Assembly: GCA_018819405.1 (NCBI GenBank)
Contig: JAHJQF010000001.1
Location: forward strand, 290,097 to 354,096
Length of the DNA stretch: 64,000 bases
Source of the DNA: Patescibacteria group bacterium
GTDB taxonomy: Bacteria; Patescibacteriota; Patescibacteriia; UBA1558; GWA2-36-10
Direction: 5' to 3'
Every line of letters starts with the position of its first letter. Positions within the stretch are counted from its first letter, which is position 1. Positions 15,969-56,804 of the stretch are shown in pieces. Below the pieces are notes generated by a model. The model was not told where the DNA came from and made no database searches. It saw nothing but the letters and a program-made list of their open reading frames with translations. The position numbers were made by a program, and so were the translations under genes.

Positions 15969-16026
15969 ATTTTATTAGTTAGTTAAAGAATTAGGCCAAG
16001 CAATTTTGGTGAAGCGCCTGACAAGG

Positions 16027-16063
16027 CGCTGAACCGCATATGGGGTGTTAGCTGATGTAAATA
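16027..16063. repeat. Site-B copy 11
   Basis: GCGCTGAACCGCATATGGGGTGTTAGCTGATGTAAAT. Confidence 0.7.
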
Positions 16064-16098
16064 AATTCAACGAGCATAGCGAGTTGTTTAAATGAATT

Positions 16099-16710
16099 TT
16101 ATTTTTTTGGTTTTATTGACCCTAAAACAATATAATAAAAAATTCTTTGTATAAATACGAATATTAGGATTATTATAATATTAGTCAGTAAAAAAGATTT
16201 TAAGAAATTTTCAGAAGAATATACTGGAGTTATATCGAATAGATGGTTGGTGTAACTTATTGGTGAGTTAATAGATTTTTCCTGGTCAATTCTATTTTGC
16301 CACTTTTGATCATCATTACTTGCATCAAATAATGGCTCATCATTTTTTATGTCAAAGTATCTTTGTAAATCGTAGATACTAATGTTTGCTGTAAATTTAG
16401 AATTACATTTTTTTAATATATTTTCTATGGCATATTCATTACTTGGTTCCGAATAAAAAGTTTTATAATTGTAGTTTTTTAAACTATTTTCTAGGCCATA
16501 ATATATTGACAGTTCATTTAATTTATAAGTTACTTTACCAGTGCTTCTATTGCATGTCAGAGTAGATTTTTCTAAGTCTAATTTATTATATTTATTCTGA
16601 AAGACTTCATAATTACCGATGCTAATTGTTATGACAAAAACAATAATAAATATTACTTTTATAAGTCTATACCAAGCCTTATTATTTAGGTTTAAAATGG
16701 TTTTTTCCAT
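16099..16710 (-). CDS. membrane protein (N- and C-terminal TM helices)
   Basis: 203-aa ORF. First module next to the recombinase. Confidence 0.5.
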   Translation of the reverse strand: MEKTILNLNNKAWYRLIKVIFIIVFVITISIGNYEVFQNKYNKLDLEKSTLTCNRSTGKVTYKLNELSIYYGLENSLKNYNYKTFYSEPSNEYAIENILKKCNSKFTANISIYDLQRYFDIKNDEPLFDASNDDQKWQNRIDQEKSINSPISYTNHLFDITPVYSSENFLKSFLLTNIIIILIFVFIQRIFYYIVLGSIKPKK

Positions 16711-16774
16711 ATTTATTAAGGTTAAAAAATAAAATTCATTTAAATATTCGGCGTTAGCCGAATAAAGTTATTTA

Positions 16775-16795
16775 TTTCAGCTAACAGTGTGTTTG
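16775..16795. repeat. Site-A half-site next to the recombinase gene (ATTTCAGCTAACAGTGTG)
   Basis: Only the conserved TTTCAGCTAACAG core is present. Lies 70 nt upstream of the recombinase ATG. IR ATTCGGC-GTTA-GCCGAAT at 16747-16764 and a TTGACA at 16831 are in the same intergenic region. Confidence 0.5.
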
Positions 16796-16862
16796 TGCAC
16801 CTATTGACATCGTAGCTCAAATTAGCCAATATGTAAATATTAAGCATTAATCACAAAGTATT

Positions 16863-17729
16863 ATGAAAAGCGATGAAAAGGGGCTACAAAAGTCCCAGTT
16901 TTTAGCCAATAGTCATCCTCTGGCTAGCCTGGCTCAGGAGCTCATTATCAGGGGGTTTTCTGGGCGCACCATCAAGAGCTATTTGTCTCACAACCAGCGA
17001 TTTTTGGACTGGACTGGCAAGTCGGCTAGAGATATTAGTAGTCAGGACGTCAAAGATTATCTCCTGTATCTCAAAAGCCAAAATTATTCCAATACCTCCT
17101 TAAATAGTGTTATCTCATCTCTCAAGTTTTATTATGGACAGATTCTGCATCGGAAGCTGTTTTTTAGTATTCGTCGGCCGAAAAAAGAAAAATTTTTGCC
17201 GATTGTTTTGACGCGTCAGGAAATCATCAAAATTATCAACTGCGCGCACAATCTAAAACACAAATTATTATTGTCACTTCTCTATGGTTCTGGTCTGAGA
17301 GTGTCAGAAGTAGTCAAAATAAAAATAAGTCATTTAGATTTGCAGAGCAGGAGTCTCTTGGTCAAAGATAGCAAAGGTGCCAAAGACAGATATACATTGC
17401 TAAGTGGCATAAGCATAAAATTTTTAAATATTTATTTACCAAAATTACCAGCCAACCAAAAATATCTATTTAGTGGACAGTCTGGTCAAAGTCATTTGAG
17501 TCAAAGAAGCGCTCAAAAAGTATTTGATCAGGCCCTTGAAAAATCAGGTCTAAAAAAAGACGCCAGTTGCCACAGCCTGCGTCATTCCTTTGCTACTCAT
17601 CTTTTGGAAGCGGGGACAGATATCAGGTATATCCAAAAATTACTTGGTCATCAAAATATCAAAACAACTGAAATCTATACTCAGGTGGCTCGTGATTTTT
17701 TTCGGGGCATCAAAAGTCCACTTGATTAA
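16863..17729 (+). CDS. tyrosine site-specific recombinase (XerC/XerD-like, phage-integrase family)
   Basis: Box I GLRVSE, HSLRHSFATHLL (HxxR), catalytic Tyr in TTEIYTQV. 288 aa. Transcribed divergently from the cassette-like array. Confidence 0.85.
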   Translation: MKSDEKGLQKSQFLANSHPLASLAQELIIRGFSGRTIKSYLSHNQRFLDWTGKSARDISSQDVKDYLLYLKSQNYSNTSLNSVISSLKFYYGQILHRKLFFSIRRPKKEKFLPIVLTRQEIIKIINCAHNLKHKLLLSLLYGSGLRVSEVVKIKISHLDLQSRSLLVKDSKGAKDRYTLLSGISIKFLNIYLPKLPANQKYLFSGQSGQSHLSQRSAQKVFDQALEKSGLKKDASCHSLRHSFATHLLEAGTDIRYIQKLLGHQNIKTTEIYTQVARDFFRGIKSPLD

Positions 17730-17785
17730 ACAAAAACCCGACAGCTATGTCGGGTTTTATTATTTACTTTAATACAGTCAAAAAC

Positions 17786-38893: not shown

Positions 38894-39286
38894 TTATTTA
38901 TTTTTTAAACTTTTTGACTTAAGTGATATAGCAAATACGCCTAGGATAGAAAGATAAGTAGCGGTAAATTGGGAGTATAGCTGATATCTTTTATCAATAG
39001 CACTAATGACAATAAATATAAGCATCAGTATTGTCCAGGTCACTATAAATATCTCACCGTTGTAGCGGGAAAAGAAATCTTTGTTTTTCCAACGGCTGTA
39101 TTCTTTGACGCCGGTAAAAATAGAGAGGATAGATAGGTAGATGATAGTGATGTCAGTCAGCAGATAGCTCATATCCCAAATTTTGAAAAAAGTGAGCAAA
39201 AAGATAAGGGAAGTAATAATACCCCAAAAGTTGGTTAGTCCCTTCCAGAACACTAGTTCGGCTTTTGTTTTTTTATGGTTTTTCAC
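38894..39286 (-). CDS. membrane protein
   Basis: Four TM helices, 130 aa. Confidence 0.4.
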   Translation of the reverse strand: MKNHKKTKAELVFWKGLTNFWGIITSLIFLLTFFKIWDMSYLLTDITIIYLSILSIFTGVKEYSRWKNKDFFSRYNGEIFIVTWTILMLIFIVISAIDKRYQLYSQFTATYLSILGVFAISLKSKSLKNK

Positions 39287-41312: not shown

Positions 41313-41594
41313 ATGAAGTATAGCGAACATCAAAGTTACAAAATTGGCTTTGAATTATCCAATATTGTTTGGAAAATAGTAAAAGGTTGGTATAGGTATT
41401 ATAAGAAAGATAAAATAGTATTTTTCAATTATGCCAAAGCTTCTTTTTATGAATCAGTTGATTGGATAAATAAAGCCATACAAAGGGGTCTTATAAAAAA
41501 GACAGAGGCGGATAGATTAAGGACTTTGATAATAAAATTTCCTAAAGAGATAAACGGCTTAATAAAAGGCACAAGGATAAATTTGAAAAAATAA
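41313..41594 (+). CDS. hypothetical protein
   Basis: 93-aa basic protein. Confidence 0.35.
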   Translation: MKYSEHQSYKIGFELSNIVWKIVKGWYRYYKKDKIVFFNYAKASFYESVDWINKAIQRGLIKKTEADRLRTLIIKFPKEINGLIKGTRINLKK

Positions 41595-41639
41595 TCAATT
41601 AACCTATTGACCAATTAGTCTATTAAGCTATTATTTTAT

Positions 41640-41714
41640 GCCCCGGTAGTTCAACGGATAGAATAGAAGCCTTCTAAGCTTTAGATTCAGGTTCGATTCC
41701 TGGCCGGGGTACCA
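41640..41714 (+). tRNA. tRNA-Arg (anticodon TCT)
   Basis: Acceptor GCCCCGG pairs with CCGGGGT. Anticodon loop CTTCTAA. T-loop TTCGATT. CCA encoded. Confidence 0.75.
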
Positions 41715-41807
41715 GATTAATTGTATAATTGTTCAATTGAATAATAGTTTAATTGAATCAAACAATTAGACAAATAGGCAATTAGTCTATTAAGCAATTA
41801 TTTCCGT

Positions 41808-41883
41808 GGTGCCCATAGTGTAATGGTTAACACAGAAGCTTGTGGAGCTTTTAATGAGGGTTCAATTCCCTCTGGGCACCCCA
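41808..41883 (+). tRNA. tRNA-His (anticodon GTG) with encoded G-1 and CCA
   Basis: G-1 pairs with C73. Acceptor GTGCCCA pairs with TGGGCAC. Anticodon loop TTGTGGA. T-loop TTCAATT. Confidence 0.75.
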
Positions 41884-41983: not shown

Positions 41984-43492
41984 TTACAACCCCCAGTTTT
42001 TGGTTTCTTTGGCGACCATCATACAGTCGCCGTTGACTTCTTGCATCCATTGGAATCGAAGCTTGGTTAGCTCCTCAGGAGTCAAACCACCTACAGGGAA
42101 TGCCGCTCGTTCGTGGCTCGTTCGGAGATCAAGATCAGGGAACAAAGACTGAAATTTGTTGTAGGCCATGGTACCAGGAATGGCTGTAACGATGAAAATC
42201 ATCGCATAAGCCAACCCAACTTGCTTCAATTTTATGGCGTATTCTACCGTCCTTTCCATGTCTTGCAGAGACTCGTTTTGAAAGCCAACCATGAAGCCAC
42301 CGACTACTTCAATACCAGAATTGGTAGCGTAGCGGACAATTTCTTCAGCTGGTTCTACTCTGGTGTTGATGTGGGGCTTATGACTTTCTATCAAGGATTG
42401 AGGATTTGCCGACTCAATAGCTAAGTAGAAGCGGTAGCAACCAGACTCGGCAAGCTTGTTTAAGACTTGCTTATAAGTCAGGTTATGTCCCGGCTTCATA
42501 AACTTGAACATTGAGAGGCCACCCTCTTCAAACCAGCTCATGCTGTGTTTTTTCAGGATGTCACAGATAGCCATTGCTCTCTGCATGTCAGCAAAGAACA
42601 TGTCGTCTTCGACAACTAGCTCAGTGACACCAGCTGCTTTTAGAAGCACGACTTCTTGTTCAAATCTAGCTAGGCTGTAGTAGCGAATGTTTCCCGCCAT
42701 AATATGAATATGGCAGAAGTCACATTTCAGCGGACAACCTTGGCTAGACATGATGTAAGCAAGTCTTCCTTCTTTCTGGTGGCGACTCCCACCTGTATGC
42801 TCGGGCGTGTCATACATTGGGTGAAGTGGGATTTCCAAACGGCGCGGTGCCAGAAGGTCCAGATCGGGTAGTAATCCACGACCAGGATTGTCTACTGGCT
42901 TACCAATCGAATCTTTATAACTTACTCCGAGAACGGGAGTGAAGTTACGTGATGATTGGTTGGATTCCAGGGAGTAGCAGAGCTCAGGAAAGCTCACAAC
43001 TCCTTCTTTTCGAATTACCATGTCAACGTTTGGATCCTCTAATACCCTTTCTATATCACCAGTGGCATTGGAGCCACCTTCGGTGATAATTGCTTTGGGG
43101 TAGGCCTCTTTGGTTAGGGCAGCGACTCGGGCGACATTGTTTGCTTGGTTGCTAAACAAGCTAGTAATGCCGACAATGTCAGGATTGAATTGACTTAGCA
43201 GTTTTCTTAGCTGCTGGTCAGTTAATCCATAGCGGATACTGCCGTCATCTTGTGGGGTGAATTGGTTATAGGCAGCCATGCAGGCATCAATGAAAATTAC
43301 ATTGAAACCTTTGGCAACCAATTCAACAGCAATGAGCTCTAATCCTAGGGGGCAACCAGCTCTACGAGTTTCATATTTTTCAAAGAAACTATAGAATGGC
43401 ACTAGAAGAAGTACAGTCAAACGACTTTCTTCTTCGTTGTTGTAAATAACACCCTCGGGGATTATTTTTACCGACATTTTCGGATTCATCAT
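41984..43492 (-). CDS. B12-binding radical SAM enzyme
   Basis: N-terminal cobalamin-binding Rossmann segment. CPLKCDFCHIH (CxxxCxxC). GC ~50%, above genome background. Confidence 0.7.
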   Translation of the reverse strand: MMNPKMSVKIIPEGVIYNNEEESRLTVLLLVPFYSFFEKYETRRAGCPLGLELIAVELVAKGFNVIFIDACMAAYNQFTPQDDGSIRYGLTDQQLRKLLSQFNPDIVGITSLFSNQANNVARVAALTKEAYPKAIITEGGSNATGDIERVLEDPNVDMVIRKEGVVSFPELCYSLESNQSSRNFTPVLGVSYKDSIGKPVDNPGRGLLPDLDLLAPRRLEIPLHPMYDTPEHTGGSRHQKEGRLAYIMSSQGCPLKCDFCHIHIMAGNIRYYSLARFEQEVVLLKAAGVTELVVEDDMFFADMQRAMAICDILKKHSMSWFEEGGLSMFKFMKPGHNLTYKQVLNKLAESGCYRFYLAIESANPQSLIESHKPHINTRVEPAEEIVRYATNSGIEVVGGFMVGFQNESLQDMERTVEYAIKLKQVGLAYAMIFIVTAIPGTMAYNKFQSLFPDLDLRTSHERAAFPVGGLTPEELTKLRFQWMQEVNGDCMMVAKETKNWGL

Positions 43493-43689
43493 GGGCTCCC
43501 TTCGGGGGGGATTGTTGATTGTTAAAGGACTGGTGATCTAAAACATAAAATTATAACAATTTTTGCCTATTATGTCAACGATACTCGACAGTTTTGTCGA
43601 GTAAATTCAGCCTATTATTAAAAGGGCTATTGACTAAAGGGGAATTATGTATTATAATGATGACGAAAGATTCGACATAATTTAAAAAT

Positions 43690-44424
43690 ATGGAAAGTAT
43701 ATTAAAACAACTAGGTTTTTCTGATAATGAAGCTAAGGTCTATTTAGCTGCTTTAGGCTTAGGAAAAGCTTCAGCACAGGACATTGCTAAACAAGCTAGT
43801 CTAAAGAGAACTACAGTTTATTCAGTTTTAGACTATTTAATAGAGCGAGGTGTGATTGGTAAAAGCACTGAACGTGGTAAAACTCGTTTTGTAGCTGAGG
43901 CACCAGACAAACTATTAGCAATGACTGATCAATTACGGGAAAAAATAAAAAAAGCCCTACCAGAATTGGAGGCTGTATATAATAAAAGCGAGTCAAAACC
44001 AAAAATTGTGTTTTATGAAGGCAAAGAGGCTATTCAAAACATTTATGATGACACTTTGCGAGAAAAACCAGATGCTATTTTAGAATGGAATACCAATGCT
44101 TACTTTGAACGTTTTCCTAAAGACCACGCTTATATTGATAAAAGAGTAAAACTCAACATTCAAGCAAGGCGTATTGCTGGTGAAGGATCAGTTTGGCACA
44201 CTAAACATAAAGGATATGATAAATCAGAGCTCTCTGAGACTATTGTTGTACCAAAAGATAAGTTTTGGCCAATGATTGAAGTTAATATTTATAATAATAA
44301 AGTTGCTTTTATGAATTACGCCGATGAGATGTCAGTTGTTATTGAAAACAAGGCTATTGCCGAAGCAATGAAACAGATTTATGAACTTTCTTGGCAAGGT
44401 GCTAAGAAGATTGAAGTAAATTAG
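43690..44424 (+). CDS. TrmB-family transcriptional regulator
   Basis: N-terminal wHTH ILKQLGFSDNEAKVYLAALGLGKASAQDIAKQASLKRTTVYSVLDYL. Confidence 0.65.
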   Translation: MESILKQLGFSDNEAKVYLAALGLGKASAQDIAKQASLKRTTVYSVLDYLIERGVIGKSTERGKTRFVAEAPDKLLAMTDQLREKIKKALPELEAVYNKSESKPKIVFYEGKEAIQNIYDDTLREKPDAILEWNTNAYFERFPKDHAYIDKRVKLNIQARRIAGEGSVWHTKHKGYDKSELSETIVVPKDKFWPMIEVNIYNNKVAFMNYADEMSVVIENKAIAEAMKQIYELSWQGAKKIEVN

Positions 44425-44530
44425 GAATATAAACATCATTTTTTGCAATTATTTATAGCTAGTATATTCTCTCTAACATTAGCCATGTATTCTTTATCTG
44501 AGAGAATAGTTATAATATCGTTCTGAGACT

Positions 44531-44598
44531 GACCCCATAGAAGAAATCGCTCTAAAAGCGGTTTTTTGATATAATGATAATGTTATTAAAATAAAAAT
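44531..44598 (+). promoter_or_regulatory. conserved promoter/leader module (GACCCCATAG...hairpin...TTTTTTGATATAATG...GTTATTAAAATAAAAAT-ATG)
   Basis: Near-identical to 54047-54100. Extended -10 TGATATAAT. AT-rich conserved leader with no SD. Confidence 0.6.
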
Positions 44599-44787
44599 AT
44601 GGAAGAGAAAAAAATAAAACAAGAAAATATAACTATTCCTAAAAAGGCAATGTACGGTATTGCGCCAGTTATTGCTATATCTGCAGTATTAATTTCTAAA
44701 GATCAACCTGGGCCATTGCTTTTATTTTTTATTGGCATTAGCGCAGGAGTATTTATTGGTAAAGGATTTTTTGAAAATAAGAAATAA
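44599..44787 (+). CDS. small membrane protein (62 aa)
   Basis: Sits immediately behind the conserved leader. Confidence 0.4.
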   Translation: MEEKKIKQENITIPKKAMYGIAPVIAISAVLISKDQPGPLLLFFIGISAGVFIGKGFFENKK

Positions 44788-45116
44788 ATAATATGAAAAT
44801 ACAAGACACATTAGGAGCTGGCTTGGTTGTAGTAGGGATTATCTTTTTAAATAGTAATCCAACCATTGGAATGCTGTTTGTTGGATTTGGGTTAGGTTAT
44901 AATGTGCGTCCTCATCTACAAAAAATGTTTAAAAAGAAATAATTAGAATACAGGAATGTAAATATTTTCTTTTTGTTGTTGTATTTGAGTTCTAACTTTC
45001 TGTATTGTGCCACAATCATTTTTAGGGGTAGTAGCGAGAAGATATTAGAAATAAAATAATAAAAAAAGCAGGCCCAGATCACTGAATGTGATCTGGGCCT
45101 TTTCCGTCTATGCAGA

Positions 45117-46031
45117 TTATCTTGCCTGGTAGTTGGGGAGACCAACTACGCAAGGCAAAGCGGTGTCTGCGACGTGAAGCATTTCCGAAGTGATGTCTTG
45201 ACCTCCGCCGATGGTGGCATTGAACACCTTCACTTCCTGCTGGACGTCTACCTGGAGTGTCAGTCGTTGGTAGTGTTCAGCAAGGTGAAGAAGCGTGTGC
45301 AATATGTTGCCTGCCATCTTGCCGAGTGAAGGGACATCCTGCAGTGGATGAACTCGCTCGTCGAGAAATACTTGGGTGATTCGCTCTGATCCATATTCGA
45401 GTACTGCTTGGAGCAGTATAGCGACCTCTACGCTGTAACCAGAATAGAAGGTTGCTTTCTCGAGGAACTTGCGAGTCCCAGCATATTCTCCAGCCAGGGG
45501 CTGTATGAAATCGGCGGTTTCGGGAAATAGCATATTGAGGAAAGGTCGAGCTAGAAGCTCGGTTACCCTAGCGTCACCTTTGGGTCGCTTGTAGTATCCC
45601 TTGGTAAAGACTACCTCAGGATCCATCAGGAAGGGAGCGATAATTCCCAAGATGAAACGGGGGTGGATGTTCTCTATGTCGGTGTCAATCCAGGCGACGA
45701 CATCGCCAGTGGTATAGTACACACTACTCCATAGATTCCAGCCTTTTCCTCTTGCTAAGGGGATAGATATGGCCTTGGCAGTATGCTCATCTTGAATTGC
45801 TTTGAAGCCAAGCTGAGAACACATATCCAAGGTGTTGTCGGTTGATCCGCTGTCGAGCACGATGATCTCATCGACCAATGGCTGACATGACATAGCACAC
45901 TCGATGACACGAACAACTGTTGTCTCCTCATTTTTGACGGGGAGAGCCAAGCTGATCGTTATTTGGCGCTCTTGTTTGAGAGCCAAGAGGTGCGCCATGT
46001 CAGCGGCGTCTAAGTACGACATATATTTCAT
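45117..46031 (-). CDS. family-2 glycosyltransferase
   Basis: GT-A fold motifs VKNEE...LDSGSTD. GC-rich. Confidence 0.65.
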   Translation of the reverse strand: MKYMSYLDAADMAHLLALKQERQITISLALPVKNEETTVVRVIECAMSCQPLVDEIIVLDSGSTDNTLDMCSQLGFKAIQDEHTAKAISIPLARGKGWNLWSSVYYTTGDVVAWIDTDIENIHPRFILGIIAPFLMDPEVVFTKGYYKRPKGDARVTELLARPFLNMLFPETADFIQPLAGEYAGTRKFLEKATFYSGYSVEVAILLQAVLEYGSERITQVFLDERVHPLQDVPSLGKMAGNILHTLLHLAEHYQRLTLQVDVQQEVKVFNATIGGGQDITSEMLHVADTALPCVVGLPNYQAR

Positions 46032-47203
46032 GATTCACCTCCTATCATAGCACTACAGACCTTGCGGACAGCAGTGCAGCAGACGTCAACGAAATGACTG
46101 GTCACGTCGGGGTTGGTGTATAGGTTAAACAGCGATGTTGTCACCCGGTGTGAAACTACAGGCTGGTTGGAACCAGCAAATACCGCAGTTCTAGAAAGTG
46201 CTACTGGGTAAAGACAATTGACCATGGCTCCTTCAGCCCTTACAGCCTTAAGAAACCATTCTCGATGTGCTGATAGTTTGGTCATAAGGACTGCAGTCAG
46301 GCAGTGATTGACGTGACCATCTGCATCATCTTGGAACTGTAGGTGAAGTTCGTTCAGACCGTCACGATAGAGCGCAGCGTTATAACAGCGCGAGCGATTG
46401 AGGTCCGGCAGCTTACGCAGTTGGACAAGCCCAATAGCCGCCTGTAACTCTGTCATTGCGTAGTTGTAGCCGAGTTTATCGTAGTCGTATACGGCCAGGT
46501 TATCACTGGTCAATCCGTGTCGGGTCAGCGATCTACACCGCCGAGCCAACTCTTCATTTCTAGTGACAACCATTCCACCCTCTCCGCAGCTCATGTTCTT
46601 CGTTTGGTAGAAACTATAGCAGGCAATGTCTCCGAAGGTACCTACTATTTGCCCACTAATAGTAGCTCCATGAGCTTGGGCGCAGTCTTCTATCAGACGG
46701 ATTCCACGTTCTTTCACCAGGGACACGATTTGATCCATATCGGCAGGCATGCCGTATAGATGGACCACGATCACCGCCTTGGTGCGATTGGTTATTTTGG
46801 AACGCAGATCACGGACTGACAGGTTGAAGGTGTGGGGGTCAATGTCGCAAAACACGACTTTCGCCCCGGTTTGTAGAACTACCGAAGCGGTGGAAACGAA
46901 GGTCAAGTCAGGGACAATTACTTCGTCTCCATGGCCTATCTGCAAAGCATCGACAGCCGTATGAAGGGCAGTGGTGCCAGACGTAGTTGCAATCGCATAG
47001 GGCAAGTCGTGGTACGCAGCGAACGCTTGTTCAAACTGTTGTACCATTTCGCCCATGCCTGCTCTTGAAACTACACCTCTTCCCATTACCTCCCAGACAG
47101 CTTGCCGCTCTTCTTCGCCGAAGACCCGACCTCGTTTGAGACCTGCTGGATAAACGGCTTGACCACCGTTTATTGCCAGTGAAGGTTCTTCGAACATAAT
47201 CAC
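46028..47203 (-). CDS. DegT/DnrJ/EryC1/StrS-family PLP-dependent sugar aminotransferase
   Basis: Family-typical fold and conserved active-site Lys region. 4-nt overlaps with both neighbours. Confidence 0.8.
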   Translation of the reverse strand: MIMFEEPSLAINGGQAVYPAGLKRGRVFGEEERQAVWEVMGRGVVSRAGMGEMVQQFEQAFAAYHDLPYAIATTSGTTALHTAVDALQIGHGDEVIVPDLTFVSTASVVLQTGAKVVFCDIDPHTFNLSVRDLRSKITNRTKAVIVVHLYGMPADMDQIVSLVKERGIRLIEDCAQAHGATISGQIVGTFGDIACYSFYQTKNMSCGEGGMVVTRNEELARRCRSLTRHGLTSDNLAVYDYDKLGYNYAMTELQAAIGLVQLRKLPDLNRSRCYNAALYRDGLNELHLQFQDDADGHVNHCLTAVLMTKLSAHREWFLKAVRAEGAMVNCLYPVALSRTAVFAGSNQPVVSHRVTTSLFNLYTNPDVTSHFVDVCCTAVRKVCSAMIGGES

Positions 47204-48375
47204 TCCTTGATGTTGTCGGCGAAACTTTCGCCAAGAGGAATAGGATTGGCTCCTATTAGGTGACAGACGGTCTGTCCTAGATCGGCGAAGCTCGCTCGGG
47301 TTCCCAAGTTTGAGCCTGGTCGATCGCCACCGTTCAGTGCCAGAAGAGGTACGTACTCTCGCGTATGTCCCCGGATCGCTATGACTGGATCGCAGCCATG
47401 GTCGGCTACAATCAGCAGAAGATCGTCACGACCGATCATCGGCAGAACTTCGCCAAGTCTTTGGTCGAAGTACATAAGATCACGGGCATATTGACGTGGC
47501 TTACGCGCGTGGCCGGACATATCGAAGTCCGGCACAACGAACATGGCCGCGCCATCACCACCGGTTCCTAAGTGTCTAAGGACAGCGTCCATGACACCAG
47601 CCGAGTCCATGACACCGGGAATTGTCTCGGTGACGAACTCATCGCCTATCACTGAAGCGAGGTGTTCGGTAACCGTGAAAGGCATTCCGACTTCTCGTAT
47701 TCGGCGGAAGAGGTGTTCACGGTTCTTATCAAGTGGCACGACAATATCAGCTCGGTTCTCGGTGCGGACAAAGTCGCCTTTTTCACCGATGAAGGCTCGA
47801 GCGATGATTCTCGTGACATTTTTCCCGATGAAGAAACGAGACATCTTCCAGGCAACGTCATGTAGCCTGGCGGGCGGAACAACACTTTCGTGAGCCGCCA
47901 CCAAGACTACACCGTCATCGCAGGTGTAGACGATTGGCTGGCCTGTTGCGAAATGTTGGTCAGCGCATTCGTCAAACACCTTGAAACCGGAAACGTAGGC
48001 ATTACACAGTGTTAGGGTGCCTATGGCCTGTTGCATTTGCCGCACCAGGTCAGCTGACATCCTAGGGTAGAACGACGCGAATCGTTCTGCGAAGGTAACG
48101 CCTGCCATTTCCCAGACACCAGCAAAGGTGTCGTTTCCTGAGGTTATCTCGGTCATGCGTCCGTAGTGAGCCAGGGGATAATCAACCGTCGGTACATTAT
48201 TGACGCCGACGATATTACCAAAGCCTAGCCTCTCCAAGTTGGGAACTCGGAAGTCCGGGAGCGATTCAGCTGCGTGATGGAATGTGTTAGCGCCAACGCT
48301 CTTGTAGTCTGCTGCGTCAGGCTGAGCGCCGATGCCGACGCTATCCATCACTAGGATAATTATGCGTCGAAACAT
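47200..48375 (-). CDS. deoB: phosphopentomutase (DeoB family, alkaline-phosphatase superfamily)
   Basis: LVMDSVGIGA, SGNDTFAGVWEMAGV, RIIARAFIGEKGDFVRTENR and VADHGCDP blocks match E. coli DeoB. Confidence 0.75.
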   Translation of the reverse strand: MFRRIIILVMDSVGIGAQPDAADYKSVGANTFHHAAESLPDFRVPNLERLGFGNIVGVNNVPTVDYPLAHYGRMTEITSGNDTFAGVWEMAGVTFAERFASFYPRMSADLVRQMQQAIGTLTLCNAYVSGFKVFDECADQHFATGQPIVYTCDDGVVLVAAHESVVPPARLHDVAWKMSRFFIGKNVTRIIARAFIGEKGDFVRTENRADIVVPLDKNREHLFRRIREVGMPFTVTEHLASVIGDEFVTETIPGVMDSAGVMDAVLRHLGTGGDGAAMFVVPDFDMSGHARKPRQYARDLMYFDQRLGEVLPMIGRDDLLLIVADHGCDPVIAIRGHTREYVPLLALNGGDRPGSNLGTRASFADLGQTVCHLIGANPIPLGESFADNIKE

Positions 48376-48396
48376 CGTTCTTTCCTTTCCGACTTT

Positions 48397-49479
48397 TCAG
48401 TCGAGCGCCACTGGTTGCCCAGTTTTCGCCGAAAGATAGATGGCATCAACGATGCTCATCAGTCTGCAGGCCTCCAGAGGGCTAGTCAGTGGTTCATCCT
48501 CTCCTTGTAGTGATCTAACGAAGTTGATTGCAGCAGCTACGCGTCCCATCGTATTATCGAAGGGGACAGAGATGTTCTGGTTATTCGGCTGACCATCTTC
48601 CTGTGAGTATACCTCACAGGTGCCGGTAATTGTATCACCGGCGTTATCTTGGAACAGTCTAGAAACCATAGCCCCAGCTTTCTGCCCTTGCAGGGTCACA
48701 AAGCATTTTTCTTCTCGAACCATTTCGGCCCAAGAAATGTGGAGCGTGAGCACTTGCCCAGTTTCGAAGGTGATGGTGGCGTGAGCACTTGATTCAACAT
48801 CCGTGACACCGTCTCCGTTTGGTACTCCGTAGGGACCTCTGCGCGAGGGGTCATCCATGAAGTCGTTGAAGGTTTGACCCAGCACATGTTTCGGTTTGGG
48901 GTAGCCCATAAAGTATAGGGCTAAGTCTAGCATGTGCATCAGATCCATTAGCGCTCCGCCACCGGCTATTTTCTGGTTGGTGAACCAGTTTCCGTATCCC
49001 GGAATACCTGATCTACGAACCCAAACAGCTTGGGCAGAATTGATCCGGCCAAAGAATCCACTGTTGATACGTTGGATGATCTCCAGTGATTCTGGCCGTG
49101 CTCGATTGTTGAAGTCAAACAGGAGTTGCCTGCCGGATGCGCGAGAAGCCGAGAACATCTCTTGAGCTTCATACGCGTTCATTGCCGGGGGCTTTTCACA
49201 GAACACGTGCTTCCCAGCTCTCAGAGCCTGAATAGTAAGTGTTTTGTGGTGTGCTGGAGGTGTGAGAATGCTGACAGCGTCAACATCCGAAGATGCTAGA
49301 GTCAGCATTTCCTCAAGTGAAGTGAAAACTCGTGGTATCTTCCACTCAGTTGCGGCTTTTTGGGCCGCGACTGGATTCGTGTCGGCAACGCAGGTTATCT
49401 CAGCACCAGCTGAACGGAATCCGTTAGCTTGGTACTTGAGCATTACGCCTGCACCGACGATGCCGATTTTTAGAGACAT
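48397..49479 (-). CDS. Gfo/Idh/MocA-family NAD(P)-dependent oxidoreductase
   Basis: N-terminal Rossmann motif IGIVGAGVM. EKP motif. Confidence 0.75.
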   Translation of the reverse strand: MSLKIGIVGAGVMLKYQANGFRSAGAEITCVADTNPVAAQKAATEWKIPRVFTSLEEMLTLASSDVDAVSILTPPAHHKTLTIQALRAGKHVFCEKPPAMNAYEAQEMFSASRASGRQLLFDFNNRARPESLEIIQRINSGFFGRINSAQAVWVRRSGIPGYGNWFTNQKIAGGGALMDLMHMLDLALYFMGYPKPKHVLGQTFNDFMDDPSRRGPYGVPNGDGVTDVESSAHATITFETGQVLTLHISWAEMVREEKCFVTLQGQKAGAMVSRLFQDNAGDTITGTCEVYSQEDGQPNNQNISVPFDNTMGRVAAAINFVRSLQGEDEPLTSPLEACRLMSIVDAIYLSAKTGQPVALD

Positions 49480-49491
49480 CGTTTTCTCCTT

Positions 49492-50298
49492 CTAGGTTTT
49501 GGTGCAGACGAAAGTTCCGCGTGATCTGTCCAATACGATTGGCAGCTCCCTGCTGGACAACAGATTTCTCATTTCTGCTGCCAGGGCAGATTTTGTAGCT
49601 GCATCGCTGGTCGCTTCTTGGAAACTTGGCAGGGTAGTGTAGTACAGCATGAAGCTGTCTACGTCAGGAAACACCATTTGGAAACCATAGAAGTGGTACC
49701 TTACATCTCCGAAGAGATTATCGAGGTACTCTCTGGCATTTCCGCAGTGGAAAGGTGAACGAGAAAGGCGTACGTTGGTTTCGATGCCAACGCGAGATAT
49801 TGCTTCTTGATGGCATACTCTCAGTAGGTCATCGTCAGGAGTTTTTACTCCAGTTGTAATAATCACCTTTCCCTTTTTTCTGACTACTCGTAGTGATTCT
49901 CTTAACCCATGTTCAAGATCATCCACGTGATTCAGAACGTGTTTGGCAACTACCACATCAAATTGATCATCGCCGAAAGGCAGATTTTCAATTGACGCAA
50001 TAGCGCACAGGGGTGTGCTGATCGTGTTACAAGCTCTCTGGCAAGTGATACTCAACAGTGCTTGTGAAATATCTACGGCAAAGACTTTCCCGCCTTTGTT
50101 CAGTCGTTGGGTGATTATGGCAACATCTCTTCCGGTTCCCGAGCCAGCATCTAATACCAGCTCATCGCCCTCGAAGTGGATGAAGTCTATGCCATATTTA
50201 CCAGCGCCGACGCCGTATCTATCCCAAGCAAGCTCTCTGTTGAGTAGATTGCGCGCAGTCCCGTACTGGGCCTGCGGATCACTGTATTTGATCCTCAT
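49492..50298 (-). CDS. class I SAM-dependent methyltransferase
   Basis: Motif I VLDAGSGTGRD. Acidic-loop motifs. Confidence 0.7.
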   Translation of the reverse strand: MRIKYSDPQAQYGTARNLLNRELAWDRYGVGAGKYGIDFIHFEGDELVLDAGSGTGRDVAIITQRLNKGGKVFAVDISQALLSITCQRACNTISTPLCAIASIENLPFGDDQFDVVVAKHVLNHVDDLEHGLRESLRVVRKKGKVIITTGVKTPDDDLLRVCHQEAISRVGIETNVRLSRSPFHCGNAREYLDNLFGDVRYHFYGFQMVFPDVDSFMLYYTTLPSFQEATSDAATKSALAAEMRNLLSSRELPIVLDRSRGTFVCTKT

Positions 50299-50385
50299 GT
50301 CTATCTACTCCTTGTCAAGGTACAGCGTCAAACAATTTTGACTTTACAAAGTACCAGAAAACGGTTATTATGTCAACATAAGAAT

Positions 50386-50781
50386 ATGACTAAAAAGACG
50401 CAAAAAACAACTGTAAAAGCACTATTTGAGAAGGATAAAAGAATCCTTCTTGTTAAAGACCCTAAAGGTGTTTGGGAGATGCCCGGTGGTCGTATAGAGC
50501 ATGGTGAAACTCCAGAAAAAGCCCTAAAAAGAGAACTTAAAGAAGAGCTTGGCTGGAATAATGTAGATATTAAAAATATAGTTGACTCATGGACATTTTC
50601 TTCAGAAGTTGATGATACTAATTACCATTTTATTATTTTGACTTATGTTTGTGATTTTGGTGAAGAAGAAATAAAAGAAAATGACGAATATACAGAGTAT
50701 AGATGGGTGCCAGTTGATGAGATTGATGGGCTGAATATGAGGGATGGTTATAAGAAAACAATTAAGAAATTTATAGGTTAG
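50386..50781 (+). CDS. Nudix hydrolase
   Basis: GGRIEHGETPEKALKRELKEELG Nudix box. Low-GC. Start set at MTKKTQ. Confidence 0.7.
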   Translation: MTKKTQKTTVKALFEKDKRILLVKDPKGVWEMPGGRIEHGETPEKALKRELKEELGWNNVDIKNIVDSWTFSSEVDDTNYHFIILTYVCDFGEEEIKENDEYTEYRWVPVDEIDGLNMRDGYKKTIKKFIG

Positions 50782-51039: not shown

Positions 51040-51435
51040 ATGACACTCCAAAAGTTTAGCGAGTTGGTGCTCAAGGTTTTTGGTCACGCAACAGACTTTG
51101 AAGATGTTACCGACAGAAGTCCCGTGTATTATCCTGACGATTTTACCTGTTGGGAGACACATCTGAGGGCAAGCGTTGAGGTGGCTGGTGGGCCCGTTGA
51201 AGTGCACGCCTACTATCTTGGCGGATGTATCACTTGGACTGGGAAGGATGACTGGTATGGATTTAGAAAACATAATGCCATCCAGCGTGATGATACTGAA
51301 ACTGCCTTACGTACTTTGCATTGTATGTTGCATTTTGGTTATAGCCAGTCAAAAATTCTCCATTTACCAGATGGAAGCACCTTGGGACCCATTTGGGGGA
51401 CCAGCCATGAAGATTTGCGAGCTGAGATTACATAG
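51040..51435 (+). CDS. hypothetical protein
   Basis: RBS GGAAGGAAG. 131 aa. Terminator-like hairpin follows. The opposite-strand ORF 50938-51273 is judged spurious. Confidence 0.45.
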   Translation: MTLQKFSELVLKVFGHATDFEDVTDRSPVYYPDDFTCWETHLRASVEVAGGPVEVHAYYLGGCITWTGKDDWYGFRKHNAIQRDDTETALRTLHCMLHFGYSQSKILHLPDGSTLGPIWGTSHEDLRAEIT

Positions 51436-51689
51436 CCAGCTGGCAACTCAGACCGTGGTGGCCTCGTCAATTCGGACGGGGCCTTTCATTTTATAAAGCT
51501 ATGTTTAATTCTAACGCTCCAAAAATAAAAAATAATTTAAAATATCTTTGCATTACAAAATTGTCAGTTCAGCTATATAAACATCAGTTCAGTTCCGATA
51601 CGCTCCCTGCCCGCCATCGCTACGCCCAGGCGTAGCAGGCGGGTACTGTGGCACCCCAGTCAAAAGCTCCCAATTTCATTGGGGATTTT

Positions 51690-54046: not shown

Positions 54047-54121
54047 CGACCCCATAGAAGAAATCGCTCTAAAAGCGGTTTTTTGATATAATGAAAATAT
54101 TAATTTATTTAAAATATAATT
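54047..54121 (+). promoter_or_regulatory. conserved promoter/leader module (copy of 44531-44598)
   Basis: GCGACCCCATAGAAGAAATCGCTCTAAAAGCGGTTTTTTGATATAATGA is ~95% identical to 44528-44584. Confidence 0.6.
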
Positions 54122-54454
54122 ATGAATATTTTAATAACAGGGGCAGCTACAGGAATAGGGAAATCTTTGGCAGATAAATTTTCTAAAGAAGGGTATACAG
54201 TTATAAGCACTTATCATACCACCAAAGGACCTGGCTATCATTTGGATTTATCAAATGAGTCAGATATTAAAACATTGGTCAATAATATAGGTGTGTCTAC
54301 TGATAAGGTGGTCGAGGTAGTGTATAACACGGCGATGAATAAATATAAGTTAAAAAATGGAGCAGATATCAAAGTAAGAGATTATAGATTTGGTACATAC
54401 TTACGTATTCCTTTTATTGTAGCTAGAAAAGTTAAAAAATTAGCATTTAGTTAA
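54122..54454 (+). pseudogene. short-chain dehydrogenase/reductase N-terminal fragment
   Basis: TGAATGIGKS Rossmann motif. Only 110 aa, lacks the catalytic YxxxK region. Confidence 0.5.
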
Positions 54455-54588: not shown

Positions 54589-54969
54589 TCAGTTTATGCT
54601 CAGAGCCCATCGCACAAAGGGGTGAGTTTCTTCTTCGATAAGGTGTCGGATTTCGGGAATTTGGAGAAAATTGGGATCAATTTTCTCCAGCGAAAGCACA
54701 GCGTGACCGCGAGCCAGGTAGTGGTTGTCAGACAGTGCCTTGATGAGGCATTCCTTGGATCGGACCAGACCCAGATCACCTAGGCAGCGTATAGCATCGC
54801 AGCGGATGTAGTCGGTGTCGTCGGTGAGCACCAGATGTTCAACCAACACCACCACCCCCGGATCAGCGATTTTATCGTGCCAGACAATGTTGACAGCCGT
54901 ACCTTTCTGGTAAGGATCTGGGCAAACTAGCCAAGCTTTGAGTTTCACGGGGTCAAAATTCCTCTTCAT
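54589..54969 (-). CDS. HEAT/PBS-lyase-like repeat protein
   Basis: DxxxxIRxxAxxxLGxLG repeat pattern. Confidence 0.45.
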   Translation of the reverse strand: MKRNFDPVKLKAWLVCPDPYQKGTAVNIVWHDKIADPGVVVLVEHLVLTDDTDYIRCDAIRCLGDLGLVRSKECLIKALSDNHYLARGHAVLSLEKIDPNFLQIPEIRHLIEEETHPFVRWALSIN

Positions 54970-54973
54970 GGCT

Positions 54974-55480
54974 TTACCTTTCTAGCAGCTCTCTTAACTG
55001 CTTTAGCGTGTCTTCCATTTGGTAGAGTCGGATGCCAATCATAGGCACCCTTAGGCTTTGTTTATGCATCAAAGACTGCAATTCCTCAACGAAAATACCA
55101 CTACCTCTTAGGTGTTGTCTTTTTTCTCCGTAAATCAGATCTACGGCACAGGAAGGAGAAAAATCGATGCCTAAGACAGCCATCAGCTCGTTGCCGTTGT
55201 CTTTAAACAAGATCATCTGGCCTACTACTGTCTGAGCTAGTTGGCGACATACTGCCCGGTTACTTACCTTGTCATAGTGGGTCTTATGACAAGGCCTACG
55301 ACAAAAGCCGTCAAATATCAGCTCCGGACAGGGCATTTGTACCATGTTTATTTTATGCCTCGTAAGCATTTCTGTGACAGGGGTTATTATAGCCGGGTAT
55401 TTTCGGACAATACCTTGAGCCCTTACCCCTTGAGCTGTAGCACAAAAGGACAAAAAGACAAACCTTTTGCTTCTGTTCAT
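54974..55480 (-). CDS. DUF523-family protein (TudS-like [4Fe-4S] desulfurase family)
   Basis: Conserved Cys ligands including an MPCPE motif. Confidence 0.5.
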   Translation of the reverse strand: MNRSKRFVFLSFCATAQGVRAQGIVRKYPAIITPVTEMLTRHKINMVQMPCPELIFDGFCRRPCHKTHYDKVSNRAVCRQLAQTVVGQMILFKDNGNELMAVLGIDFSPSCAVDLIYGEKRQHLRGSGIFVEELQSLMHKQSLRVPMIGIRLYQMEDTLKQLRELLER

Positions 55481-55500
55481 AGCCGGCCTCCTGTTAAGGT

Positions 55501-55968
55501 TTAGTCCAATTCCTCTATTTCAATTCCATGGGCTTGTAAAAGAGCCGCGAAGACTCCTAGACCTTTCTTTTTTTGTCCTGAGAAGTCCCCGGTATATATG
55601 TGAAGTGCCCCACAAGTGGGGCTACCGGATTTAAGTAACACTTTTTTTATTTCGTTTTTTTGAATAATATCCAAAGCAAGTTTTGCTCCCTTGATAAATA
55701 CTTCAGTGTAATCAATACCATATTTATCTACTATTTTGGCTTTACCAGCCAATACATCTTTGCCATCGCCGCTTGATATTTCGCAAGCAGGCCTGGGAGT
55801 TGGCAATCCAGCTAGCACTTCCGGGCATATTATCAGAGATTTGCCTTTTAAAAATTCTTTTATAGCTTTAGGATTATTTTTACCTTTTTCATTCCAGCGG
55901 CAGGGTATACCTAAGAGGCAAGCGCTTATTGCTTGATTTAAATTATCTTTGTTTTTATTGTCCTCCAT
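55501..55968 (-). CDS. DUF523-family protein (TudS-like), second paralog
   Basis: SACLLGIPCRWNEKG and ICPEVLAGLPTPRP motifs typical of DUF523. Start placed at MEDNKNK. Confidence 0.55.
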   Translation of the reverse strand: MEDNKNKDNLNQAISACLLGIPCRWNEKGKNNPKAIKEFLKGKSLIICPEVLAGLPTPRPACEISSGDGKDVLAGKAKIVDKYGIDYTEVFIKGAKLALDIIQKNEIKKVLLKSGSPTCGALHIYTGDFSGQKKKGLGVFAALLQAHGIEIEELD

Positions 55969-56036
55969 ATATTTTAGCAAACTATTATTTTTGCTGGAGA
56001 GGGGAGATTTTTCATCACCCCTCTCTGGGGGATTGA

Positions 56037-56804
56037 CTAAGGCTGCAGAGTGCTCTCGCAGGCCATGATGCGTTTCAGGACTTCGGCCGTATAGCGGGTG
56101 ATCTCCTCGGGTTTGGCCGTGGAAAATGAGTCGGACCACATGCAGACCGGTTCCTGCTTGGGAATGTAGACACCAAGTTCGGCGAGCATTTGGTTGACCA
56201 CCGGCTTGTCGGCCAGGATATCATAGAGAGGCGAGAGGTAGGTCAAGCCGAAGTCGGCATAAATTTTCTTGAGGGGGACCATAAATTCATCGGTCTGTTC
56301 GGGGTAGTCCTTCTGGCGTTCGGCATAGCCGTCGAGGATCAGATGGATGCCGAGCTCCTGGGCGTATCGGGCGGCGGAGTAGTTCATGATCAGCTTGCAG
56401 GCCAGGCAGATCAGCAGTGTGCTGAAGCTGCGTTCTCTGAAATCGGCTTCAATTTGCTGCATACCGACTTGGCGCATCATCATGCTAACGCGTTTCATCT
56501 CGAAGATGATGTCGTTTCCAGGGTTGAGGTCTTGGATTATGCGCAGCTGCCGCTTGGTGGAATCCAGTCGACTGAGCAGGCCGTTGTCGATCAGGAGAAG
56601 ATGGAGTTGGCTGGCCGGAAAGGCCTTACAGAAAGCAGCGGCCACAGCACTGCTGTCACGTCCGCCGGAAAAAAGCAGGACAGCGCGTCCGTCAAAGTCG
56701 GGGACAGAGTTTATGATCCTTTCATGCACCAGCTGGATAGCTTGAGTCGCTAGTTCCTTCATTTCGTGCTCCAATCGTTGGTGTTGTTGATTGTGGGTGA
56801 ACAA
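56037..56804 (-). CDS. PP-loop superfamily ATPase (adenine nucleotide alpha-hydrolase)
   Basis: SGGRDS PP-motif. 255 aa. GC-rich. Confidence 0.6.
   Translation of the reverse strand: MFTHNQQHQRLEHEMKELATQAIQLVHERIINSVPDFDGRAVLLFSGGRDSSAVAAAFCKAFPASQLHLLLIDNGLLSRLDSTKRQLRIIQDLNPGNDIIFEMKRVSMMMRQVGMQQIEADFRERSFSTLLICLACKLIMNYSAARYAQELGIHLILDGYAERQKDYPEQTDEFMVPLKKIYADFGLTYLSPLYDILADKPVVNQMLAELGVYIPKQEPVCMWSDSFSTAKPEEITRYTAEVLKRIMACESTLQP

Follow-up and report, generated by a model that had tools for sequence, protein, structure and literature searches.

How did a sharply bounded GC-rich gene block come to lie in the low-GC genome of a Patescibacteria group bacterium, and what might its genes make? 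The question is raised by a stretch of 64,000 nucleotides from contig JAHJQF010000001.1 (GenBank assembly GCA_018819405.1, positions 290,097 to 354,096 of the forward strand), referred to here as the window; the window proteins correspond to NCBI entries MBU1202739-753. An earlier note on this DNA had proposed a sugar-modification cluster at 41984-50298, acquired horizontally from a higher-GC donor. The explanation favoured here, to which we give a probability of roughly 0.6 as a whole, is a cassette restricted to Patescibacteria that was spread horizontally within the gene pool of the candidate phyla radiation (CPR) and that would yield a soluble product of the 3-amino-hexosyl-(phospho)glycerate type.

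The real unit is a six-gene cassette of 5.7 kb (45091-50781), in which a NUDIX hydrolase gene is divergent from an operon encoding, in the order of transcription, an S-adenosylmethionine (SAM)-dependent methyltransferase (MT), a Gfo/Idh/MocA oxidoreductase (Gfo), a phosphopentomutase-type phosphomutase (PPM), a DegT-family aminotransferase (DegT) and a glycosyltransferase (GT). The low-GC NUDIX gene is the member that was absent from the cluster as first described. DNA homology between the window and the closest copy, locus L002, spans 45091-50753 (5665 nt at 79.3% identity) and takes in the NUDIX gene and nothing past it, and every PPM relative that was looked up sits in the same cassette. 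For counts of core and accessory genes, the open reading frames (ORFs) of 14 loci, the window and 13 others, were clustered. GT and PPM are present in all 14 loci, and DegT and NUDIX in 13 each, both gaps falling on truncated contigs. Gfo is present in nine and is missing from L005, L007 and L014 as well as from the truncated contigs L009 and L016. MT is confined to the three closest cassettes, those of the window, L002 (89% identity) and L004 (78%).

The core of NUDIX, PPM, DegT and GT is shared by the 13 other loci, whose surroundings are unrelated and in which its genes follow one of two orders. The first order is that of the window. The second is DegT-Gfo-PPM-GT-NUDIX-hyp250 on one strand, hyp250 being an orphan family, and an MT or DUF3419 gene is added in some loci. 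The second-order Gfo belongs to a different subfamily, with 20-24% identity to the first-order Gfo, and is closest to UDP-GlcNAc 3-dehydrogenase and IolG. PPM separates the two orders (37-39% identity across them), whereas NUDIX does not (58% across, similar to the value within the first order). The DegT orthologs of the cassette loci show 62-81% identity (63-82% by tblastn). The place of GT is taken in L005 by an enzyme that is not its ortholog but is likewise MGS-like.

The composition of the block was measured against the remainder of the window. The five-gene minus-strand operon (45117-50298) has a GC content of 0.508, compared with 0.355 for the window minus 41984-50298. Over 1-kb segments, the island has a mean of 0.511 and a minimum of 0.479, and the background has a mean of 0.353, a standard deviation of 0.042 and a maximum of 0.451, so that the island lies ~3.8 standard deviations higher. 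The contrast of about 55% against about 32% that had been estimated earlier is thus real, but the figures were too high. GC at third codon positions (GC3) is 0.48-0.56 in the five operon genes and 0.18-0.31 in most low-GC neighbour genes, the exception being the gene at 38894-39286 (0.41); the shift in the operon is therefore not solely one of amino-acid composition. The edges are abrupt and lie at the GT stop (~45100) and the MT start (~50300). By its deviation in composition from the host, 45117-50298 carries one of the marks of a genomic island.

A switch of composition at gene boundaries would also be produced if a higher-GC fragment of another organism had been misjoined into a low-GC contig during assembly or binning. 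The block sits, however, in one contig of 1.036 Mb, both of its junctions were recovered in a separate Logan assembly of SRR6514730 (L001), and the juxtaposition of high and low GC is seen again in two further samples, those of L002 and L003. These observations exclude an assembly artefact. The NUDIX gene, in addition, has a host-like GC content yet is homologous across all cassette copies, and we attach practically no weight to a misjoin or binning error.

The GC content was also compared across the cassette copies. In the first gene order the sugar genes have GC values of 0.41-0.54 while those of flanking genes range from ~0.31 to 0.60; the sugar genes are richer in GC than their hosts in the window, L002 and L007, poorer in L005 and L008 (the two highest-GC first-order hosts) and for the most part below host GC in L006. 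In the second order, cassettes with GC values of 0.27-0.36 lie within hosts of 0.48-0.53 (L011, L012 and L017). A high GC content is thus no inherent property of these proteins, and the composition of the window copy (~51% GC, with NUDIX low) would be that of the cassette lineage rather than that of the 35% GC host. As a separate observation, NUDIX is 10-19 GC points under the adjacent sugar genes in every first-order locus that has it (L002-L008, L014 and the window), whatever the GC content of the host.

Mobility is most directly seen in L002. Here the cassette lies, with an integrase gene on either side, in an integrative element of ~14.3 kb (L002 2132-16490) at tRNA-Thr. The tRNA gene stands at one end, before the first integrase, and its 3' end is repeated perfectly over 47 nt at the other, after the second; both integrases are tyrosine recombinases. 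The element backbone is of low GC (0.32, in a chromosome of ~0.40) and carries genes without assigned function, including one for a 993-aa protein. In L004, L006 and L008 the cassette has tRNA genes no more than 0.5 kb away, and two tRNA-Ser genes and a serine recombinase gene adjoin it in L005. By gene identity the cassettes are mosaics: in L006, GT shares 82-84% identity with the window group, but PPM shares 62-63% with that group and 72% with L008. No flanking gene is common to any two cassette loci from different contigs. Toxin-antitoxin, AIPR (abortive-infection-type) or recombinase genes lie beside several cassette loci (L005 and L009). Transfer would probably have relied on integrative elements directed at tRNA genes and, in addition, on recombination of one cassette copy with another. 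With respect to phages, a scan of IMG/VR gave a single match, to a giant virus at 35% identity. A search with the PADLOC models of anti-phage defence gave no match to the sugar genes and weak generic matches to MT and to the neighbouring TrmB and radical SAM proteins; the best library match of NUDIX is the PADLOC defence-candidate single-gene model PDC-S07 (73 bits, full length), compared with 55 bits for the best NCBIfam NUDIX model.

At the window locus itself, a candidate insertion site is formed by tRNA-Arg(TCT) and tRNA-His(GTG), which were located on the plus strand at 41640-41883 using ARAGORN and Rfam. The same ABC transporter followed by tRNA-Arg and tRNA-His occurs in L111 and L093. 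L111 (~70% amino-acid identity) is syntenic with the window from 28.6 kb through the ABC transporter, tRNA-Arg and tRNA-His, and has unrelated genes afterwards. Adjacency to a tRNA gene (the end of tRNA-His is at 41883) and absence from a syntenic relative, two further marks of an island, are thus both found. A check on whether relatives lack the island had been suggested earlier; L111 does lack the cassette at this site, but a relative that is only ~70% identical is weak evidence for a recent gain. The region after the tRNA pair appears to be a variable site. In L111 the tRNA pair is followed at 16019-20662 by GC-rich genes for an amidohydrolase and for two adjacent class II aminoacyl-tRNA synthetases of the Asp/Asn/Lys type (0.51-0.53, against a background of 0.30). 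The sole tyrosine-recombinase-like gene of the window is at 16863-17729, and a search of the window for copies of the tRNA-Arg or tRNA-His 3' ends as att sites found none. With no mobility gene beside the window cassette, its transfer into this genome is one that we infer.

The window copy resembles tRNA-targeted integrative islands in its deviant composition, its tRNA neighbours and its absence at the site in a syntenic relative, and L002 adds the full integrase and the 47-nt att repeat of a tRNA 3' end. It differs from them in having neither integrase nor att repeat and in a conserved unit of just 5.7 kb; the backbone of the L002 carrier (GC 0.32) is unrelated to the window flanks.

The donor was sought among the nearest homologs, and statements on taxa cover the matches that bear a source name. 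PPM homologs at 54-85% identity are all from Patescibacteria, after which identity drops to 41% (canonical DeoB). GT homologs at 63-85% and 44-54% carry only Patescibacteria names or belong to cassette loci, and the true GpgS enzymes of Chloroflexota and others reach at most 45% identity to the cassette GT. The Gfo homologs comprise a CPR tier at 64% and a next tier at 44-50% with Buchananbacteria and Patescibacteria as its named members. The genes beside 74 non-CPR true GpgS genes were also examined: PPM, DegT and NUDIX were found at none of them, 73 of the 74 had no cassette gene at all and the remaining locus had solely a 28%-identical Gfo-like gene. No closer non-CPR cassette was found within the databases searched.

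Two other origins for the cassette have to be weighed against this evidence. In one, the cassette would be an old CPR trait inherited vertically, its high GC content arising from codon or amino-acid selection specific to these genes. The closest homologs are indeed all from CPR and the closest copies (L002 and L014) have the same GC content of ~0.5, which is the outcome that the earlier note had equated with vertical inheritance, and the radical SAM gene described below has an offset of about +9-10 GC points in two backgrounds (0.455 against 0.355 in the window; 0.568 against 0.48 in L173), so that gene-specific offsets do exist. Vertical inheritance nevertheless does not follow. The AT-rich second form in GC-richer hosts, the sugar genes lying below host GC in L005, L008 and mostly L006, the lack of any shared flanking gene, the att-flanked L002 element with its integrases and the mutually discordant gene trees all stand against it. 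On the varying genomic context, the L002 element, the AT-rich form and the mosaic identities we rate vertical inheritance as unlikely, and the horizontal acquisition first proposed is supported for a block that is both foreign in composition and mobile. In the other, the block would have been acquired recently from a higher-GC donor outside CPR such as Actinobacteria, Chloroflexota or Firmicutes. The large and sharp-edged contrast in GC and GC3 would suit such a donor, Chloroflexota and Actinomycetota frequently carry genuine GpgS genes, and horizontal gene transfer into Patescibacteria from other phyla is documented (PMC12455944). The best non-CPR matches are, however, at most 45% identical for GT and 41% for PPM, compared with 84-85% for CPR copies, PPM, DegT and NUDIX are absent beside all 74 non-CPR GpgS genes, and 83% of the transfers detected into Patescibacteria in the same survey came from other Patescibacteria (PMC12455944). 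The donor outside CPR, as originally suggested, is consequently not borne out for PPM, GT, Gfo or the radical SAM enzyme, the named nearest homologs of which are all from Patescibacteria, and we consider such a donor very improbable. Transfer within the CPR gene pool remains the reading that we prefer.

The packing of the genes makes a single operon plausible, with a strong terminator after GT. There are 4-nt overlaps at the GT/DegT and DegT/PPM junctions, and the other two junctions are gaps of 21 and 12 nt; the operon put forward earlier on the strength of 4-nt overlaps therefore holds, although only two of its four junctions overlap. The terminator is intrinsic (45070-45100, minus strand) and consists of a 13-bp stem with eight GC pairs and a T-run, directly 3' of the GT stop. 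A 77-aa ORF at 44912-45145 was discarded as a gene, as it overlaps this terminator and has no family match. Profile searches confirmed all of the domain assignments made in the earlier note (GT2, DegT, PPM, Gfo/Idh/MocA, SAM methyltransferase, B12-radical SAM and TrmB).

GT (45117-46031, minus strand, GC 0.499; PF00535), the last gene of the operon, encodes a GT-A glycosyltransferase of the GpgS/MGS type (GT81-like). Its score against NF010496 (GpgS) is 250.6 bits, narrowly under the curated cut-off of 262, and its L012 ortholog is likewise under it (242.3). The closest solved relatives are Mycobacterium tuberculosis GpgS (MtGpgS; 1e-41) and MpgS (4e-35). Residues of MtGpgS that are kept comprise the DXD motif (D116/D118), K96, RVTE (155-158), PLAGE, Y199/E202, H228 and M239, and among 19 cassette GTs D116/D118, K96, R155-V156-T157-E158, L179/E182, Y199/E202 and H228 are invariant or nearly so. 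The residues with assigned roles in MtGpgS are K114, R185-V186-T187, which binds the acceptor carboxylate, L209 in the PLSGE loop, Y229/E232 and H258 (PMC2581804). The β6-α6 loop is 12 residues shorter than in MtGpgS. The GpgS/MGS enzymes (GT81/GT78), which carry out the first step of glucosylglycerate and methylglucose lipopolysaccharide (MGLP) synthesis, are therefore a qualified likeness: they give the best family and structure match, the DXD motif, K114, R185-V186-T187, a PLSGE-type loop, Y229/E232, H258 and M269 are conserved in the cassette GT (PMC2581804) and both are soluble. In contrast to them, the cassette enzyme falls below the family cut-off, has the loop deletion, is accompanied by no GpgP-type phosphatase and is linked to DegT, PPM and NUDIX, as none of the 74 true GpgS genes is.

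DegT (46028-47203, minus strand, GC 0.507) encodes a pyridoxal phosphate (PLP)-dependent aminotransferase of the DegT/DnrJ/EryC1 family, with 352.5 bits against PF01041 (cut-off 19.8); the PLP lysine, as read from the sequence, is within SFYQTKNMSCGEGG. Its closest solved relatives are Gln:scyllo-inosose transaminase (7b0d, 5.5e-60), perosamine synthetases and QdtB. PPM (47200-48375, minus strand, GC 0.537) represents a CPR-specific subfamily of phosphopentomutase-type phosphomutases; it scores 301.3 bits against NF003766 (cut-off 256) and 284.3 bits against TIGR01696 (cut-off 341.2), and aligns over its full length to Bacillus cereus PPM (4lr7/3m8w, E = 6e-69). The motifs DSVGIG, GxDT (GNDT), DFDxxGH (DFDMSGH), ADHGxDP (ADHGCDP) and HTREYVPL are retained, and we take these to be the ones that bear the metal ligands and the phospho-threonine nucleophile of the B. 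cereus enzyme. In none of the 14 loci does PPM lie beside the nucleoside-catabolism genes deoA/C/D; its partners are instead DegT, GT and NUDIX. Gfo (48397-49479, minus strand, GC 0.512; PF01408, PF02894 and PF22725) is a DgpA-like NAD(P) oxidoreductase of the sugar C3-dehydrogenase type, DgpA/DgpA1 being its closest solved relative by a wide margin (9m3d, 6e-50, full length). MT (49492-50298, minus strand, GC 0.477; PF08241 and PF13847), the first gene of the operon, is an accessory class I methyltransferase. The divergent core member NUDIX (50386-50781, plus strand, GC 0.33; PF00293) is of the MutT/NudI type, and MutT and NudI are its closest solved relatives. None of the six proteins has a transmembrane-like segment (Kyte-Doolittle scale, 19-residue window, maximum ≤1.39). 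Solved structures of clear homologs can be assigned to all of the cassette proteins by sequence.

From these family assignments, the most likely product would be a cytoplasmic, soluble compound of the 3-amino-hexosyl-(phospho)glycerate type, methylated in the window variant. GT would transfer a gluco-hexose from a nucleoside diphosphate (NDP)-sugar to 3-phosphoglycerate (3-PGA) or a similar acid acceptor, the DgpA-like dehydrogenase would oxidise C3 of the sugar, DegT would transaminate the resulting keto group to give a 3-amino-3-deoxy-hexosyl-(phospho)glycerate-type compound, and MT would tailor this product in the variant of the window. Oxidation and transamination could equally precede transfer and act on the NDP-sugar. 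PPM and the MutT-type NUDIX would probably handle the phosphate or nucleotide side, for which the options are provision of sugar phosphates from scavenged nucleotides, removal of nucleoside di- or triphosphates (NDP/NTP) and processing of the phosphoglycerate phosphate. The proposal is supported by the GpgS donor and acceptor motifs kept in GT and by the replacement enzyme of L005 being again MGS-like. The named relatives of both Gfo subfamilies, the DgpA-like one and the UDP-GlcNAc 3-dehydrogenase/IolG-like one, oxidise ring hydroxyls of sugars or cyclitols; that the two share a specificity for C3 would be our own reading of these relationships.

The amino-sugar logic that had been recognized earlier in the pairing of Gfo/Idh/MocA with DegT holds. 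A Gfo/Idh/MocA dehydrogenase adjoining a DegT-family aminotransferase is also found in WbpB/WbpE, GnnA/GnnB, NtdC/NtdA (kanosamine) and RifL/RifK, and the cassette DegT is clearly homologous to WbpE, NtdA and AHBA synthase (RifK-type). The cassette differs from these systems in that its Gfo is nearest to DgpA, a glucoside 3-oxidoreductase acting on glycosides rather than NDP-sugars, in that its DegT is nearest to the inosose transaminase and in that the pair is embedded with a GpgS-like GT, PPM and NUDIX. The destination once suggested, a glycan for the surface protein or pili, fits less well, as the six proteins have no transmembrane-like segment and GT is of the soluble GpgS/MGS type. No flippase, polymerase, polyprenyl-phosphate transferase or oligosaccharyltransferase was found in the cassette or among the families conserved across the cassette loci, and a surface glycan is an unlikely product.

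A different product would arise if the cassette worked as do the pathways to puromycin and 3'-amino-3'-deoxyguanosine (ADG). Gfo would then oxidise and DegT aminate the 3' position of the ribose of an NTP. The toxic amino-NTP would be hydrolysed by NUDIX to the nucleoside monophosphate, and PPM would handle the aminoribose phosphate, giving an antimetabolite or a pentose-derived building block. Pur3 of the puromycin pathway belongs to the inositol-monophosphatase family, and a gene of this family lies near the cassette in L008. By enzyme class, a Gfo-like dehydrogenase, DegT and a MutT-type NUDIX match Pur10, Pur4 and Pur7 as well as AdgB-D (PMC11641026, PMC9239236), the cassette NUDIX is of the MutT/NudI NTP-pyrophosphohydrolase type and a pentose-specific mutase is a core member. 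Likened in the same way by class, the cassettes for puromycin, A201A, cystocin and ADG have an NAD-dependent dehydrogenase, a DegT-type aminotransferase and a Nudix NTP pyrophosphohydrolase; they too are small and compositionally distinct, the ADG cluster also being delimited by deviant GC (PMC9239236, PMC11641026). The CPR cassette differs in having GT and PPM as core members and the dehydrogenase as an optional one, and in having no Pur3-type phosphatase, peptidyl synthetase or exporter. Gfo is dispensable (absent from five of 14 loci, two of them truncated contigs) whereas GT is universal and keeps the GpgS hexose- and glycerate-binding motifs, and the first-order Gfo is closest to the glucoside oxidoreductase DgpA. 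An aminonucleoside-type route thus explains NUDIX and PPM better and GT worse; it is a serious rival, although on balance we hold it to be unlikely.

Somewhat less probable still, in our estimate, is a broader proposal in which the cassette makes a new, CPR-specific metabolite, either an amino-sugar acid on a glucosylglycerate scaffold or a 3'-amino-nucleotide antimetabolite with NUDIX as self-protection, and is exchanged as a mobile unit of 'accessory chemistry'. It would fit the variable regions with toxin-antitoxin, AIPR and recombinase genes, the PADLOC match of NUDIX and the hyp250 partner. If true, the unit would serve these ultra-small episymbionts in withstanding stress or in dealing with hosts or phages.

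Several observations weigh against the 3-amino-hexosyl-(phospho)glycerate cassette that we favour. The model gives no clear role to PPM and NUDIX, two of its four core genes, and Gfo is missing from the five loci named above. GT is just under the NCBI cut-off for GpgS, and its 12-residue deletion lies where the phosphate of 3-PGA is thought to bind. With regard to transfer, the window contains no integrase, att repeat or other mobility gene between 41.2 and 57.5 kb, and L111, in which the absence of the cassette is weak evidence of recent gain, is the only syntenic relative available. The cassette keeps a high GC3 in two low-GC hosts though the copies differ by 10-23% at the protein level, so that either separate recent acquisitions or a slow drift of composition toward that of the host is needed. 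Finally, NUDIX is consistently low in GC inside a unit that moves together.

CPR bacteria have tiny genomes and little biosynthetic capacity, which makes a conserved, mobile and group-restricted biosynthetic cassette a notable accessory trait. No description of this gene combination turned up in the literature searched, and the set of a GpgS-like GT, DegT, PPM and NUDIX with an optional C3-dehydrogenase and SAM-dependent enzyme appears to be undescribed. The locus also illustrates that a donor outside the phylum does not have to be invoked for every sharply bounded GC island of a CPR genome. The same module is rich in GC where its hosts are poor in it and rich in AT where the hosts have a higher GC content. 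This pattern cleanly marks gene flow within CPR, in agreement with the survey of transfer in Patescibacteria (PMC12455944). As the cassette is small and all of its proteins are predicted to be soluble, the product could be identified via heterologous expression.

The B12-binding radical SAM gene (41984-43492, minus strand), which had been linked functionally to the sugar genes, is a separate matter. Its GC content is 0.455 rather than the ~50% first given. The protein is of class B, with an N-terminal B12-binding domain and a radical SAM domain (PF02310, 56 bits; PF04055, 57 bits); in NCBIfam it reached no family cut-off, the best match being Sden_1168 (115 bits against 575). Its divergent partner encodes a TrmB-family regulator (43690-44424, plus strand; PF01978), and near-consensus divergent promoters lie between the two genes at 43578-43550 (minus, 12/12 matches) and 43630-43658 (plus, 11/12). 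The homologs of the radical SAM enzyme have 52-71% identity, the named ones being all Patescibacteria/Parcubacteria, and the next match is at 26%. The pairing with TrmB recurs in L010 and L173, where no cassette lies near the pair; in L173, a complete genome, the pair (TrmB 64%, radical SAM 67% identity) stands among housekeeping genes. The radical SAM gene of L173 has a GC content of 0.568 in a background of 0.48, ~9 points higher, so that the offset may be a property of the gene itself. From all 13 related cassette loci the radical SAM gene is absent. TrmB and the B12-radical SAM enzyme are an independent conserved pair outside the cassette, and the functional link does not stand.

The orphan family hyp250, of ~250 residues, is always encoded directly after NUDIX in the second gene order. 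Copies are found at L011 8035-8790, L012 9371-10138, L016 2709-3488, L017 6048-6824 and L018 9480-10241, and the motifs RFACxPDKxSMPFFYIE, YKGARSTGVLNNVD and EFSYRxGxxIFSDIDF are conserved. Searches of Pfam gave only single-member matches far under the cut-offs, NCBIfam gave none and a PDB profile search gave one match with an E value of 0.43; no homolog is present in the window or in first-order loci. In L016 (4146 nt; JAYEMU010000031.1) the order is PPM-GT-DUF3419-NUDIX-hyp250 at a GC content of 0.27, on a contig binned as Nanoarchaeota; either the contig was placed in the wrong bin or the module has been exchanged between CPR bacteria and DPANN archaea. A link to peptidoglycan was dismissed: the L012 module lies between a Mur ligase and MurB, but those of L011, L017 and L018 do not.

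Other features of the window surround the cassette. An ORF of 131 aa (51040-51435, GC 0.46) lies between NUDIX and the next low-GC gene; it has no family match, is followed by a strong terminator (51460-51483) and is present in L001 and in no other cassette locus. Direct repeats of 63-93 nt that bracket GC-rich patches were rejected as att sites, as their core, GGTTTTTTGATATAATGA, is a generic terminator tail with an extended -10 promoter that is also found ahead of several plus-strand genes. A perfect direct repeat of 47 nt, GACCCCATAGAAGAAATCGCTCTAAAAGCGGTTTTTTGATATAATGA, occurs at 44531-44577 and 54048-54094, 9.5 kb apart, each copy being on the low-GC side just upstream of one of two GC-rich minus-strand blocks; its 3' half is a generic terminator-plus-promoter motif, but the window has no third exact copy of the 31-nt 5' part. 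The second of these minus-strand patches (54589-56804) has a GC content of 0.42-0.51 by gene, and up to 0.61 in 100-nt segments, and encodes a HEAT-repeat protein, two DUF523/2-thiouracil-desulfurase-like proteins and a weak QueC-like PP-loop protein. This patch may likewise be of foreign origin, within the variable region that also holds the cassette. At its edge, an ORF of 110 aa (54122-54454) matches only the N-terminal ~75 residues of short-chain dehydrogenases and is probably a truncated gene remnant. Upstream of the tRNA pair, a motif of ~44 nt (…AATTAGTCTATTAAGC[A/T]ATTATTT) precedes both tRNA-Arg and tRNA-His (41585-41636 and 41752-41803) and is probably a shared tRNA promoter; a gene for a 23S-rRNA intervening-sequence protein (41313-41594) lies just upstream of it.

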